Counted from the first letter of the stretch, positions 14,301-18,363 are shown. The stretch: DNA of 29,747 nucleotides from Pelomyxa schiedti (GCA_020536535.1 JAHLWZ010001008.1:1-29747), one strand, 5' to 3'. Notes: generated by a model not told the origin, from the sequence alone. A program made the numbers and translations.

Positions 14301-16841
14301 TGTATTTAGGATTTTGTAGTTTAACCAAAGAATATCTGCCTTCATATCCTTGGTGAGATGACTTTTGTTCTGCCCCAGTGAAGAAATATTTGACAGGAGA
14401 AATCGTTGGGGGAGCTCCAGCAAATGTCATGAACTTCACTCCCAACCTGAGTTTCTGTTAGTAGTCAGAATGATAGAAAGTAACAAGCAACCCTTCAGTG
14501 GTGGAAGATATTGAAATTGGGTCATCTGACGCCCCTTTTGATATCAAGAATAAAGCTAGTGTGGAAGCTTCAGCTGCACGTGCCATCTGAACTGCAGTAC
14601 ACGGCCCAACTCGTGAAACAAAAGCATGTACATCTGCTCCACGCTCAACAAGGAGTCGGGCAACGTCTTCTAATCTAGGGGCTATCATTTTTTTTCTCTC
14701 ATCAGCCACAACATACCCTTTTGAGGCTGCAAGGTGCAGTGGGGTCAGTCTTTGCTTTGTTGTCAGGTCTACGGCCGCCCCTAGATCTAGTAGAATTGTA
14801 ACAGCTTCAACCGAGCCATTGGTAACTGGTCAAGAGGTTTAAAAGTGAGGGTTTCGGTGAAAGCTTTGCCTGCAAGGTGAAGAGGTGTATTTCCCGAGAT
14901 GTTCCGCGTGTCAATGAGGCCCTCCTGCTGAGCTCTAGTTGCAAGAAGCTTGACACATTGTAGACTATCTACTTGCCTTCAGAATCGCAAGAGAACGAGG
15001 CAAAGAGAGAACCTCCACCGATGGCTACATGCAGAGGTGTTTGCCCAGCAGAATTGGCAAGTAAATTGGCTCCGCTTTCAAGCAATAACCTAACCTTTGT
15101 ACAGTTCATTAAATTGTTGTGGAAAGCCGTAGTATACCATATCAAAATCGCTGTTTGAAGCGGCAATGTGAAGAGGAGTATTGAGTACTGCATTCTACAT
15201 TATGGTTTCTAATTTTCGCAATGAGTGTAAATACTCACTTTCTTATTCACATCCGCTCCGGCCTGAATGAGAATTTGAGCTTGTTTGCAATTCTTCCTGA
15301 AAGTGGCACTATGCAATGGACTATTTGATACGTTGGACCATAAAGGGTACCTTCCTTCAATTTACCTATCTCCTCCTGAAGAGGTACTGTTTACAACCTT
15401 ATTTCCTGGTACTGCCTTCAATAGTAGTTCTAGAACCCCAACATTTTCACTACTGATTGCTAAAGGTTTTCTTTGGTGAATGAAGTCGACAAGAGAGGAA
15501 TGAAAACCTGATGAAATGGCAGTAGGGTGAGTGTCCACAAACTTCATCATAAACTCTGAACCTGGGGGAAGATGTTAGTTGAGTGTTCCACTTTACAGCT
15601 TCTGCCATACCCGTAGATACAAAATATTCCAGAGTTGAAATGTTTCCTGCCGAGCAGGCACATTCTAAAGCTGTTGCAAGATGACCAAAGTCAACTTTTT
15701 TGGATACATTAGCCTAAAAATAGGGTAAGAAAAATGGCCAGGGGAAATTACAGTACTGTGAATAGTGCCACTGTTGCTGCATTTCCAAACATTGATGCAT
15801 AACATATTGCCTAAGAGTTTGAATTTAGTATTCATTGAATACAAGGGAAATGAATACATTCATTCCATTGTCTGAGGATATTGGGTCAGCTCCTGCTTCT
15901 AACAAAAGGCGTGCTACCTCGGCATGACCAAAGTAACATGCATGTGACAGTGGACTGGAGGAATTATAAGGTCAAAAGGAAATTTGGGAATCATCATCAC
16001 GTTGTTGGGCCAGTTTCGTTGTCATTTACAGGAGAGGGATTTGCTTTGCAACGCAGAAGAGCCGAAGCTACAGCTGCATGACCTTTAATCGCACATACAT
16101 GCAAGGGGGTCTGCTTCTTTCGGTGCGTATTTATGATGTTTACATCTGCTCCAAAAGATAGTATTTTCTCGACCACGTTTATACTTCCTCTCAAGGCTGC
16201 TATGTGAAGAGGGGCCTATATTATGTAAGTCTGACATTGGAGAGGGCAGAATTACCTGACAGTGGTCATTTAACAGAGAGCAGTTGGCAGAAGCACTATT
16301 CACTAACCATGAGAAGATTTCAGCGTTATCATTCCAAGATGCAACATGAAGTGGTGTCCATCCCGGCCAAGGGAAGGGCTGTCTTGACTTGACAGGTCCT
16401 TCACTTGCCACAGAACCTGGAACTTTAACAGTATTTATGTCCAGCTGGGCAGTTGTAAGCAGCCTCTGAACATCACGCAACTTACCTGGAGAAAAAAAAC
16501 ATGAGGGAACATTTGTAACCCTCGTGTTGACCTTGATTTACTGCTGCGATTAATCTCGCATCAGGAGATGTACTGGAGCCAACCTTGCCCTTTTGAGGAA
16601 CAGGTGGTGCAACTTTTTTTGGTTCCACTGTAGGCTCAACTTTGTTCAGAGGAGGGGTTGGAGCAACAGGGGGTGGTGCTTTAACTGCGGGAGCTGCAGC
16701 AGTAGTTATTGAAGGAGGTTCTGAGTTTGTGAGTTCAGTGTTTTGCACCGCAGCTTTGACAGGCTTGATATGAACTGGGCGTGGTATACAAGAGACACTT
16801 TGATGTTGTGGTGATTTGCGAGGAACTTTTTTACCAGACAC
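8901..16841 (-). CDS. Large multi-exon NWD1-like STAND NTPase. Domain order is N-terminal Pro-rich segment, ~9–10 ankyrin repeats, DUF4062-like module, NACHT, helical/winged-helix region, then ≥8 WD40 repeats. The ATG is at 16841 and the stop at 8901–8903.
   Basis: See the domain-level rows below. All motifs lie on one strand in one transcriptional order and are linked by 40–47 nt GT-AG introns. The divergent neighbour starts 435 bp upstream. Confidence 0.85.
11404..12617 (-). CDS. Post-NACHT helical/winged-helix region of the NLR. It contains GNPLYLSVACEELRLFGSFERLSDKILSFPDSIPG, then TVLKRLQTEIGADVVRTTLSLLRCARHGLFVSDIVECLA, then QQAAALPDE…PHAIWVNK.
   Basis: ORFs 12316..12579(-), 12042..12617(-), 11404..11850(-). 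The NPLYL..ACEELR.FG motif is a hallmark of NACHT-WD (NWD1/TEP1-type) proteins. Confidence 0.75.
12628..13341 (-). CDS. NACHT NTPase domain exons of the NLR. The first, ~13115–13341, has Walker A at ~13150–13190 (RALAVIGTPGSGKSSLLAHFVRRYSASY). The second, 12899–13067, reads RDTFVLPHFIGGSPTSTDITKMLTRLCNEIAHYYAFEVGTFTDFSELEATWQQLLQK. The third, from 12855 down to ~12630, reads IATERDKLLIVIDALNQLEDFNNSHRLAWLPATLPRNVKIVVSCLAGDCLDVLRSRKTPELQVPELD (Walker B at ~12820).
   Basis: P-loop GxxGxGKS, hhhhDALD-type Walker B, and the HF[IV]G.SP.STD…ML.RLC.EI block typical of NWD1/TEP1-type NACHT. The linking introns are 47 nt (13068–13114, donor GTTTCA, acceptor TTTTGAAG) and 43 nt (12856–12898, donor GTATAG, acceptor CAGCCAG). 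Confidence 0.85.
13746..14423 (-). CDS. Pre-NACHT module of the NLR. It has a DUF4062-like signature INLFLSSTFVDMNSERDILIKNV (14172–14423), followed by RYGWIPEPNEVPDEVKIKFRWQNGL (13746–14003).
   Basis: Pattern [VF][FL]ISSTF.DM..ERD. I recall this as characteristic of the domain N-terminal to NACHT in animal NWD1-type proteins. The assignment rests on memory, not a database search. Confidence 0.5.
14458..16485 (-). CDS. Ankyrin-repeat exons of the NLR. Exon 2 is 16256–16485 (GWTPLHVASWNDNAEIFSWLVNSASANCSLLNDHCQ). Exon 3 is 16001–16215 (APLHIAALRGSINVVEKILSFGADVNIINTHRKKQTPLHVCAIKGHAAVASALLRCKANPSPVNDNETGPT). Exon 4 starts at 15954 (TPLSHACYFGHAEVARLLLEAGADP). More repeats follow near 15600–15720, 15360–15550, 14970–15190 (NTPLHIAASNSD; RLLLESGANLLANSAGQTPLHVAIGGG), 14700–14940 (GNTPLHLAGKA; LTPLHLAASKGYVV) and 14458–14709 (VARLLVERGADVHAFVS).
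   Basis: Repeated G-TPLH-AA…LL..GA..N consensus. Introns are 46, 40 and 46 nt with donors GTCAAC, GTAATT and GTGATG. Confidence 0.7.
16532..16841 (-). CDS. NLR exon 1. MSGKKVPRKSPQHQ…PPPVAPTPPLNKVEPTVEPKKVAPPVPQKGK is a proline-rich low-complexity N-terminus. It is followed by DARLIAAVNQ, the first ankyrin helix. The donor lies at 16531, and a 46-nt intron leads to acceptor TTTTTTTTCTCCAG.
   Basis: Splicing here joins AAVNQ-G-KLRDVQRLL and restores a canonical ankyrin repeat (LIAAVNQGKLRDVQRLLTTAQLDIN). An unspliced read would hit a stop codon at 16482–16484. Confidence 0.6.
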
Positions 16842-17275
16842 TTTTGGTTTTGCTTATTTATGTGTTAAATGCATGGCAAAAAGAGAGACGATTTCCTACC
16901 AGACACCTGAGACTTGGCTTTTTTTTTGTTTTTTTTCGACTGTAAGCAACACAAAAAAGAGAAAGAGATGGGGGAAAAAAAAAAACACAGCGAGTACAAG
17001 TGCGTGCCGCGGGTCTCACTCTCTTTTGTTGTGCACCAGCACCCTGCCCTTTATCCATCAACGCAACCAGAAAGGGGTTCTGGAAGTTGGCAGGCACACT
17101 AGACGAACAACCCAACAGTACTCCCAACAAATCCATGTCCCCGCCTTGGCTCTCTCTGTTGCTTACAACTCTTGTCGGTTAATTCTTGAAAGGTCTCTTC
17201 TGATCGGGTATTTCCGAGAGACGTCTCTTCACCTAAGGAAAGGCGAAATCATTCGTTGTTTTTTGCTTCGATCGC
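16842..17275. promoter_or_regulatory. Divergent (bidirectional) promoter / 5' UTR region shared head-to-head by the minus-strand NLR gene (ATG 16841) and the plus-strand metallophosphoesterase gene (ATG 17276). It carries T9GT8 and A12 homopolymer tracts and a GC-rich segment at 17000–17060.
   Basis: Position between two divergently oriented start codons 435 bp apart. Homopolymers at 16921–16938 and 16969–16981. No TATA element confidently identified. Confidence 0.45.
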
Positions 17276-18363
17276 ATGGCAGCGACCACCTCGCCGACAA
17301 AAAGAGGCACGGGCAGTGGGACTGATAGACCTGAGATGATGAGGGTGATGTGTGGAGATGAGAGCAAGTGGGGGGACGAGGGCACGAGGGCGGCGTGCAT
17401 TGGGATACAGGTGCTGTCTGACTTGCATTTGGAGTTCGAAGGGCACGACAGATTCACGTTCGCGCCCGCGGCGCCCTACTTAGTCCTTGCTGGTTTTTTA
17501 GTTTCTTATTCTTTCTGTGATTTTCGGTTTAGATGACGGTGTTGCGAACATTCTTCTCGTTTTCTTTTGTTTTTGTTTTTATTTGTTATTTGTTGTTACG
17601 GTTGCTGGATATTAGGTGATATTGGGGACCCATTCGAGGATTCGTACGTGAATTTCTTGCATGCACAGTCGCGCCAATTCACTCACGTTTTTGTTGTGGC
17701 TGGGAACCATGAATTCTATGGCCACAAGCACACCGAGTGTGAAAATGTGATACAAGCTCTATGCGATAGTGCCCCTGAAAGAAATTGCACTTTCCTCAAA
17801 AAGGGTGTGTTCACCCTACTCGGAGGTGGTTGCTTGAGAGTTTTTGGTGCAACCTTGTGGTATGACCCTGATGCTGTGAGAACTCTCAATGATTACACTG
17901 AGATACACCGCGATGATGGAACCCCAATCAGAGGGGCAGATACCACAAGATGGTGCAAATCCGATCGTCATTGGATCAAATCCCAGCTCAAGGAAGCCCG
18001 CAAGTATGTACCACATGTTTTTTTTTTCACATCGTCAGGCTAAAATTCTGAAATAGTAATGGTCAGCTGTGCCTTGTAATCACACATCATGCACCAAGGC
18101 CCAGCCGGTGGCGTGGTGATGGTGTTGAACTACGGCCGGTGATTCAGAAGCAGTATCATCTCCCGGTATGGATACACGGGCACACACACCGCACTCTATA
18201 TTATACTGTGGACACTACTCTGGTTGTGAGCAACCAGTTGGGATACTACTACAGCAGCAACAAGAAAGATGCAGCTTTCCGGCAAGAACTGGTTGTTTAC
18301 ATAAACCCCATAACCGGAGAGACCTGGATGGTAGGTGGGCAACCACTGATTAATAAAGTGTAG
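17276..18363 (+). CDS. Calcineurin-like metallophosphoesterase, three exons: 17276–17492, 17616–18003 and 18057–18363. The introns are 123 nt (17493–17615) and 53 nt (18004–18056).
   Basis: Metallophosphatase motifs occur in order: D-x-H (QVLSDLHLEF), GDxxD across the exon 1/2 junction (LVLAG|DIGDP), GNHE (VVAGNHEF), HHAP (LVITHHAP), and GHTH (VWIHGHTHR). Donors GTTTTT and GTATGT; acceptors ATTAG and AATAG. Confidence 0.7.

Follow-up and report, generated by a model that had tools for sequence, protein, structure and literature searches.

The window analysed here, a complete 29.7-kb contig (29,747 nucleotides) of the anaerobic archamoeba Pelomyxa schiedti, carries two genes that point away from each other: a calcineurin-like metallophosphoesterase (MPE) gene on the plus strand and, on the minus strand, a gene for a STAND (signal transduction ATPases with numerous domains) NTPase with a NACHT domain and WD40 repeats, referred to below as the NACHT-WD40 gene. 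A first-pass annotation had described them as an NLR (nucleotide-binding leucine-rich-repeat) gene and a phosphoesterase gene arranged head-to-head on a 435-bp bidirectional promoter. The divergent arrangement is real, and the presence of a STAND NTPase gene on the minus strand, diverging from the MPE gene, is confirmed. The 435-bp promoter did not survive re-analysis: the start of the NACHT-WD40 gene had been misplaced, and most likely only 139 or 217 bp separate the two ATGs. The explanation that we favour, and consider quite probable, is that these are two independent neighbouring genes, divergent by coincidence in a compact genome, whose 5' ends nearly abut and whose arrangement implies no shared function. 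The same annotation had kept genome compactness as a fallback, and it is this fallback that is favoured by a density of ~2.6 kb per gene, by a second close pair on the contig and by the lack of a conserved pairing in the loci sampled.

The P. schiedti assembly holds 19,876 predicted proteins in 52.4 Mb, with 7.43 introns per gene, 98.4% of the introns being GT-AG and 1.59% GC-AG (PMC8887013). Introns and spacers included, size and gene number together give the above value of ~2.6 kb per gene; the genome is compact, intron-rich and very gene-dense. The contig, gene-dense along its whole length, contains no long bacterial-type open reading frames (ORFs); its coding sequence is divided into many short open stretches by GT-AG introns, and short spacers and neighbours in divergent orientation are typical of it. 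If orientation is random, about one quarter of neighbouring pairs are expected to stand head to head. A compact genome would bring the two 5' ends almost together, to the 139 or 217 bp that separate the start codons. At such a distance the core promoters must overlap or abut; overlapping or abutting promoters are normal for head-to-head neighbours in compact genomes and imply no shared function. The pair resembles other head-to-head pairs of compact eukaryotic genomes in its opposite orientation, in its gap of 139-217 bp and in having no other feature in between.

The spacing depends on where the minus-strand gene begins. An ATG had been reported at 16841; the codon at this place (16841-16839) reads GTG, and an in-frame TAA (16856-16854) lies four codons (12 nt) upstream of it. 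The exon that follows (16840-16532) contains no in-frame ATG, and in our approximate gene model the next in-frame methionine comes ~290 residues downstream, inside the ankyrin array. The exon is coding, since it stays open for 123 codons and continues into the first ankyrin helix, and its junction to the next exon is backed by the ankyrin consensus LIAAVNQGKLRDVQRLL. Because no in-frame ATG is available within it, the start must sit in an upstream exon, and because of the in-frame TAA, the stretch 16841-16899 is not continuous coding sequence. We enumerated 5' models in which a minus-strand ATG within 16842-17275 is connected to exon 16840-16532 by way of no more than two GT-AG introns, each 35-160 nt long. 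This yielded 664 valid models, starting at 17136 (508 models), 17058 (86) or 17252 (70). The ATG at 17136, which has a purine at position -3, is in frame with that at 17058. The predicted 5' exon structure of the NACHT-WD40 gene most likely has its start at 17136 or 17058, and the region can be laid out as follows:

17137-17275, between the genes: sequence separating the likeliest start codons, 139 bp (217 bp with a start at 17058)
17020-17136, minus strand: candidate first coding exon of the NACHT-WD40 gene, with its ATG at 17136 (GGGGACATGG context) or 17058
16940-17019, minus strand: candidate intron of 80 nt, GTGAGA...TTACAG, whose pyrimidine tract is an A-run on the plus strand
16900-16939, minus strand: candidate 40-nt micro-exon, SKKNKKKAKSQVS, whose A-runs correspond to the T9 and T8 runs discussed below; exon or intron in other models
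16841-16899, minus strand: candidate intron of 59 nt, GTAGGA...AAAAG, its last base being the G of the supposed start GTG
16532-16840, minus strand: N-terminal exon, low-complexity and rich in Pro, Lys and Ala, with the first ankyrin helix; open for 123 codons

Codon bias in the candidate first exon (17020-17136) is slightly positive, at 0.06-0.12 bits per codon against 0.29 in the next exon. A model with a single intron (16904-16853, 52 nt) is just as valid, and neither codon bias nor a small splice-site matrix favours one of the two; the matrix, based on 11 homology-supported introns, does not separate the 664 models either.

Two local sequence features of this region deserve mention. The 10-mer GTGTCTGGTA occurs twice on the minus strand, 65 bp apart (16832-16841 and 16897-16906), so that one copy falls on the candidate micro-exon donor and the other where exon 16840-16532 begins. 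On translation, the flanks of the two copies are alike (KSQVSG and KPKVSGK), pointing to either a minor duplication within the locus or the use of alternative splice sites. The palindrome CATG at 17134-17137 provides an ATG on both strands. That on the minus strand is the candidate start at 17136, while that on the plus strand (17135) opens a 15-codon ORF, which would be an upstream ORF only if the MPE transcript begins upstream of it.

A start at 17136 leaves 139 bp between the two start codons and a start at 17058 leaves 217 bp; in the least likely case, a start at 17252, 23 bp would remain. The segment 17137-17275 is most likely the sole stretch able to hold shared or abutting core promoters together with both 5' untranslated regions (UTRs), and much of 16842-17275 is probably transcribed and in part coding sequence of the NACHT-WD40 gene. 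The supposed promoter had also been characterised by its T9, T8 and A12 homopolymers. The T9 (16919-16927) and T8 (16929-16936) are present, the third run is an A11 (16975-16985) rather than an A12, and these runs are probably part of the NACHT-WD40 gene, lying in its 5' introns or in a small exon. Homopolymers of 8 bases or more are above the average here, with three in the 434 bp against 23 in the 29.7-kb contig; similar homopolymer clusters, at 4116-4421 and 18402-18841, likewise lie at gene boundaries. Rfam and tRNA scans of the whole contig, spacer included, returned no match.

Divergent in orientation and with their start codons, on which the distance is judged, less than 1 kb apart, the two genes show the usual spacing of bidirectional pairs. 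Co-expression is common among divergent pairs separated by less than 1 kb, the spacing from ATG to ATG is here only 139-217 bp, and the plus strand is free of ATG from 17136 to 17275, which fits a short 5' UTR. Co-regulation of the pair is possible, and two otherwise unrelated genes might be truly co-regulated from one nucleosome-free bidirectional promoter of 140-220 bp. As an explanation of the arrangement, however, we consider this unlikely. Abutting independent core promoters would look identical at the sequence level, and no shared motif turned up in the spacer, where no search aimed at motifs was made; to our knowledge, moreover, the promoter architecture of Pelomyxa is undescribed. The hallmark of a true bidirectional promoter is co-regulation; in the present arrangement, part of the supposed promoter is probably 5' exon or intron of one of the two genes.

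The favoured reading, that of two independent neighbours, also has to accommodate what the genes encode. For the plus-strand gene, the calcineurin-like phosphoesterase ATG given earlier at 17276 is confirmed, being backed by N-terminal similarity to the paralogue P0003. The stop codon is a TAG at 18361-18363, and the spliced product of 303 amino acids (aa) corresponds to KAH3743240.1 of P. schiedti, a 'Ser/Thr phosphatase family superfamily protein', with 100% identity over 303 aa. The gene consists of the following parts:

17276-17492, plus strand: MPE exon 1, from the start codon (17276-17278) through the N-terminus and the D-x-H motif (SDLHLE) to LVLAG
17493-17615, plus strand: MPE intron 1, 123 nt, GT..AG
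17616-18003, plus strand: MPE exon 2, with the GDIGD and GNHE motifs
18004-18056, plus strand: MPE intron 2, 53 nt, GTATGT..TAG
18057-18363, plus strand: MPE exon 3, with the THHAP and GHTH motifs and the stop codon TAG (18361-18363)

Removal of intron 1 restores the GDIGD motif. The protein belongs to the calcineurin-like metallophosphoesterase superfamily (Pfam Metallophos, PF00149; 55.2 bits against a cutoff of 21.5, E = 1.6e-14). Its metal-binding motifs form a complete set (SDLHLE, AGDIGD, AGNHEF, THHAP and HGHTH), and the ligands D49, H51, D74, N103, H104, H212, H244 and H246 are invariant or nearly so across 65 relatives. The AF2 (AlphaFold2) model, with a pLDDT (predicted local distance difference test) of 87.8, matches 78 metallophosphoesterase chains in the PDB at E <= 0.001; the best fold match is PptH (6unc; E = 4e-11, template-modelling score, TM, ~0.6), and MPPED2, Mre11, Dbr1, Rv0805 and GpdQ come later. 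The single sequence found no relative in the PDB at E <= 0.01; the MPE-family profile again placed 6unc on top (E = 2.9e-6). No NCBIfam model scored above its cutoff. On these grounds, the product is an intact, uncharacterised enzyme of the phosphodiesterase type with a complete dinuclear metal site, and would most likely act as an Mn/Fe/Zn-dependent phosphodiesterase whose substrate is a phosphodiester of a small molecule or prosthetic group. In fold, and in having every metal-binding motif, it agrees with PptH (Rv2795c, the phosphopantetheinyl hydrolase of M. tuberculosis), MPPED2, Rv0805 and GpdQ, but is only 17-18% identical to PptH, which is a distant relative although the nearest solved one.

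The family around this enzyme is large (7,284 of 8,000 scored candidates at E <= 0.001), with relatives in bacteria, protists, rotifers and fungi, and it is frequent in giant viruses. Its nearest relatives are two paralogues in P. schiedti itself, 39-40% identical and located on other contigs (KAH3756472.1 on one of 108 kb and KAH3761968.1 on one of 153 kb). Relatives at ~27-37% identity are encoded on 410 IMG/VR contigs, many of which are giant virus metagenome-assembled genome (GVMAG) bins or contigs of 0.1-1.9 Mb, and one giant-virus homologue lies ~1 kb from the major capsid gene of a nucleocytoplasmic large DNA virus (NCLDV). In P0023, a protist transcript from EukProt (529 aa), an N-terminal ankyrin-repeat array is fused to an MPE relative.

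The minus-strand gene spans ~8 kb, from ~9064 to at least 16840, and is estimated to comprise ~35 exons. Its product would begin with the Pro/Lys/Ala-rich low-complexity N-terminus, followed in order by ankyrin repeats, DUF4062, NACHT, a helical region and WD40 repeats. Automatic spliced models based on codon bias are approximate and were used only for gene extent and domain order, as small training data and a weak splice consensus make the exon chains only approximate; the Pfam score of DUF4062 was taken on a curated sequence, and the introns of this domain are supported by alignment with homologues. Downstream of the N-terminal exon, the gene comprises:

14485-16485, minus strand: ankyrin-repeat region, divided among numerous short exons (most introns 40-60 nt); Pfam Ank at 1.4e-21 and 1.4e-8
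13765-14279, minus strand: DUF4062 domain (SSTFVDM...GERYGW) in several exons; Pfam 41.9 bits against a cutoff of 24.7
12644-13303, minus strand: NACHT NTPase domain; Pfam NACHT 41.1 bits against a cutoff of 26.7, also NPHP3_N and AAA_16
13182-13159, minus strand: P-loop GTPGSGKS, within the NACHT domain
9064-11084, minus strand: WD40 repeats (Pfam WD40, 180.8 bits over 6 stretches) and stop codon (9066-9064), marking the approximate 3' end

In the alignment with homologues, DUF4062 shows invariant SSTFxDM and GERYGW motifs. Ten introns of the gene were fixed by homologue continuity: nine are GT-AG introns of 41-54 nt, and the tenth, of 44 nt, is probably GC-AG; donor and acceptor consensus are weak. 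This probable GC-AG intron (14042-14085, minus strand; cag/GCAAAC...CCCTAG) is read as such because it is the only splice that restores DLRWG(I/L)TEE without an insertion, a GT alternative of 32 nt adding four residues. No annotated protein with a 100% match to the NACHT-WD40 gene was present among the matches listed, all of which are at most 1,079 aa long, a result that neither confirms nor denies that the gene has been annotated. By analogy with the STAND family, the ATPase would be expected to switch on by nucleotide-dependent oligomerisation once its repeat domains bind a ligand.

Calling this gene an NLR was correct as far as the NACHT-type STAND NTPase with its P-loop is concerned, and incorrect for the remainder, as the C-terminal repeats are WD40 and no leucine-rich repeat (LRR) family appeared in any scan. 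Since it carries WD40 instead of LRR at its C-terminus, the gene lies outside the strict NLRs and belongs to the NWD1-like branch of STAND NTPases. With NWD1-like STANDs (DUF4062-NACHT-WD40) it shares DUF4062, NACHT/NPHP3_N and WD40 in the same order, but it adds an N-terminal low-complexity segment and a long ankyrin array and is split into the short exons, ~35 by estimate, mentioned above; Pfam WHD_NWD1 was undetected in its product. With animal and plant NLRs (NACHT or NB-ARC plus LRR) it has in common the central NACHT-type STAND NTPase, whereas LRRs are absent, no CARD, PYD or TIR was detected, and the N-terminus consists of ankyrin repeats and DUF4062. The closest relatives of the DUF4062-NACHT module are P0121, which is bacterial (43%), and P0122, a eukaryotic transcript (40%); matches with 31-39% identity over ~580 aa come from bacteria and archaea, at no fewer than 578 loci. 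Prokaryotic relatives of the module (11888-14279, minus strand) include Planctomycetota, Anaerolineae, Acidobacteriota and Bathyarchaeia, and from this mostly prokaryotic kinship it may be asked whether the NWD1-like family was transferred long ago between prokaryotes and eukaryotes.

Two points weigh against regarding the genes as merely coincidental neighbours with abutting 5' ends. First, the 5' exon structure is derived only from the nucleotide sequence, with a weak splice consensus and many valid splice combinations. Second, certain NACHT proteins of bacteria are reported to carry a calcineurin-like phosphoesterase as a fused effector domain (Kibby et al., bioRxiv 10.1101/2022.07.19.500537). 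The latter point makes a link conceivable in principle, in the form of a functional sensor-effector module, in which the NACHT-WD40 protein would sense, for example, infection, and the MPE, co-expressed from the shared promoter, would be an effector or a signal-degrading enzyme. Besides the fused bacterial effectors, the divergent and very close placement of the genes and the prokaryotic nature of the closest NACHT-module relatives speak for such a module. P0023, which joins ankyrin repeats to the MPE family, provides a very weak hint in the same direction given that the NACHT protein also bears ankyrin repeats; as these repeats are promiscuous and widespread, the fusion is no evidence of a link.

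Comparison with other genomes argues against the module. The first-pass annotation had hinted at the NTPase-phosphoesterase pairings of prokaryotes, but none of 79 NACHT loci has an MPE relative and none of 83 MPE loci has a significant NACHT module. The former are prokaryotic DUF4062-NACHT loci together with flanks of up to 10 kb on either side (1.26 Mb with 6,254 ORFs of 80 aa or more), within which the MPE-family profile found no match even at E <= 10; as a positive control, the profile was run on control loci, where it picked up the known MPE genes at 1e-67 to 1e-103. MPE is likewise missing from the locus of the closest NACHT homologue. The MPE-homologue loci (mostly from giant viruses) comprise 80 viral and 3 other ones, and the NACHT-module profile produced only a marginal match (E = 0.0038) in the viral 80. 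No STAND neighbour was seen in three MPE-homologue contexts, namely a giant-virus contig with an NCLDV capsid gene nearby, a probable viral contig and Willaertia magna. Among the best 120 MPE relatives, none contains a STAND domain and one contains ankyrin repeats. The relatives retrieved included no orthologue from another archamoeba.

PADLOC models matched only weakly and generically. For the MPE, PDC-S10 was matched at 1.3e-5 over residues 41-123 (83 residues), a weak and partial hit; the other matches were mad8 (2e-4) and STAND_TPR (5e-3), and those of the NACHT part reached 2e-4 or worse. The nearest solved relative of the MPE, PptH, is a housekeeping-type hydrolase, and the two MPE paralogues are dispersed on other P. 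schiedti contigs. Compared with the bacterial NACHT/STAND anti-phage proteins, the P. schiedti locus likewise has a NACHT NTPase and a calcineurin-like phosphoesterase at one place; theirs, however, are fused in one polypeptide, whereas those of P. schiedti are separate, divergent, intron-bearing genes, and the phosphoesterase association is absent from the 79 prokaryotic loci of the P. schiedti NACHT clade. A functional sensor-effector module is thus very improbable in our estimation, and we give slightly less credence still to its more specific form, in which an NWD1-like NACHT-WD40 protein and a PptH-like MPE would make up a co-regulated module, the unfused eukaryotic counterpart of the bacterial NACHT-phosphoesterases.

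It is equally doubtful that the 5' end of the NACHT-WD40 gene lies outside the spacer altogether, either because the gene is a 5'-truncated pseudogene or because its first exon is situated a long way upstream, either past the MPE gene or antisense to it, so that the spacer would serve the MPE gene only. Exon 16840-16532 indeed lacks an ATG, the coding bias of the candidate upstream exon is weak (0.06-0.12 against 0.29 bits per codon), the splice-site scores single out no model, and no annotated protein was matched, though with listed matches of at most 1,079 aa a long protein may have been out of reach. Nevertheless, the remaining ~8 kb of the gene are intact, the exons being open and the motifs conserved, the confirmed introns at this locus measure 41-123 nt, so that an intron of >1.2 kb across the MPE gene would be exceptional, and the in-frame ATGs at 17136 and 17058 have workable GT-AG paths. 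A joint arrival of both genes from a bacterium or a giant virus was also considered and is rejected, since both genes contain spliceosomal introns and the two are never neighbours in the sampled prokaryotic and viral loci.

Elsewhere on the contig, a second probable head-to-head pair is located in window positions 3810-4084, with candidate ATGs ~180-225 bp apart; its gene models are partial:

Candidate ATGs at 3875 or 3833, minus strand: protein-kinase gene
ATG at 4058, plus strand: partner ORF, MSSSDLWQQ (nine codons) and then a GT donor

The T8-T10 runs of the cluster at 4116-4421 follow the plus-strand ATG of this pair, within a few hundred bases downstream. On the other side of the MPE gene, plus-strand open frames restart ~150-350 bp past its stop codon, and we take these as the next, putative gene. 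Further along, a Pro/Ser/Thr-rich open frame of 339 codons (22566-23582, plus strand) has no Pfam match, and a Ser-rich, low-complexity 'SQS/SHS' frame of 198 codons occupies 23899-24492 on the minus strand; GC skew flips sharply from -0.3 to +0.3 near 23.5 kb, within the region 22566-24503. Towards the end of the contig, a gene segment with a TLC domain (TRAM/LAG1/CLN8; Pfam 1.2e-27) is found on the minus strand at 28732-29547, and exactly antisense to it runs a plus-strand frame of 258 codons, probably an artefact of codon composition.

Were the NACHT-WD40 and MPE genes a module after all, they would represent an unusual eukaryotic case of a STAND sensor and a phosphoesterase effector that are paired without being fused, and would offer an entry point into signalling of the innate-immunity type in Archamoebae; the tests of conservation lend this no support. 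As it stands, the arrangement matters little, being one more close divergent pair in a genome with ~2.6 kb per gene. Its value is corrective: the start of the NACHT gene had been misplaced, what was regarded as a promoter is probably in large part the 5' structure of that gene, and the minus-strand gene is an NWD1-like STAND NTPase rather than an NLR.

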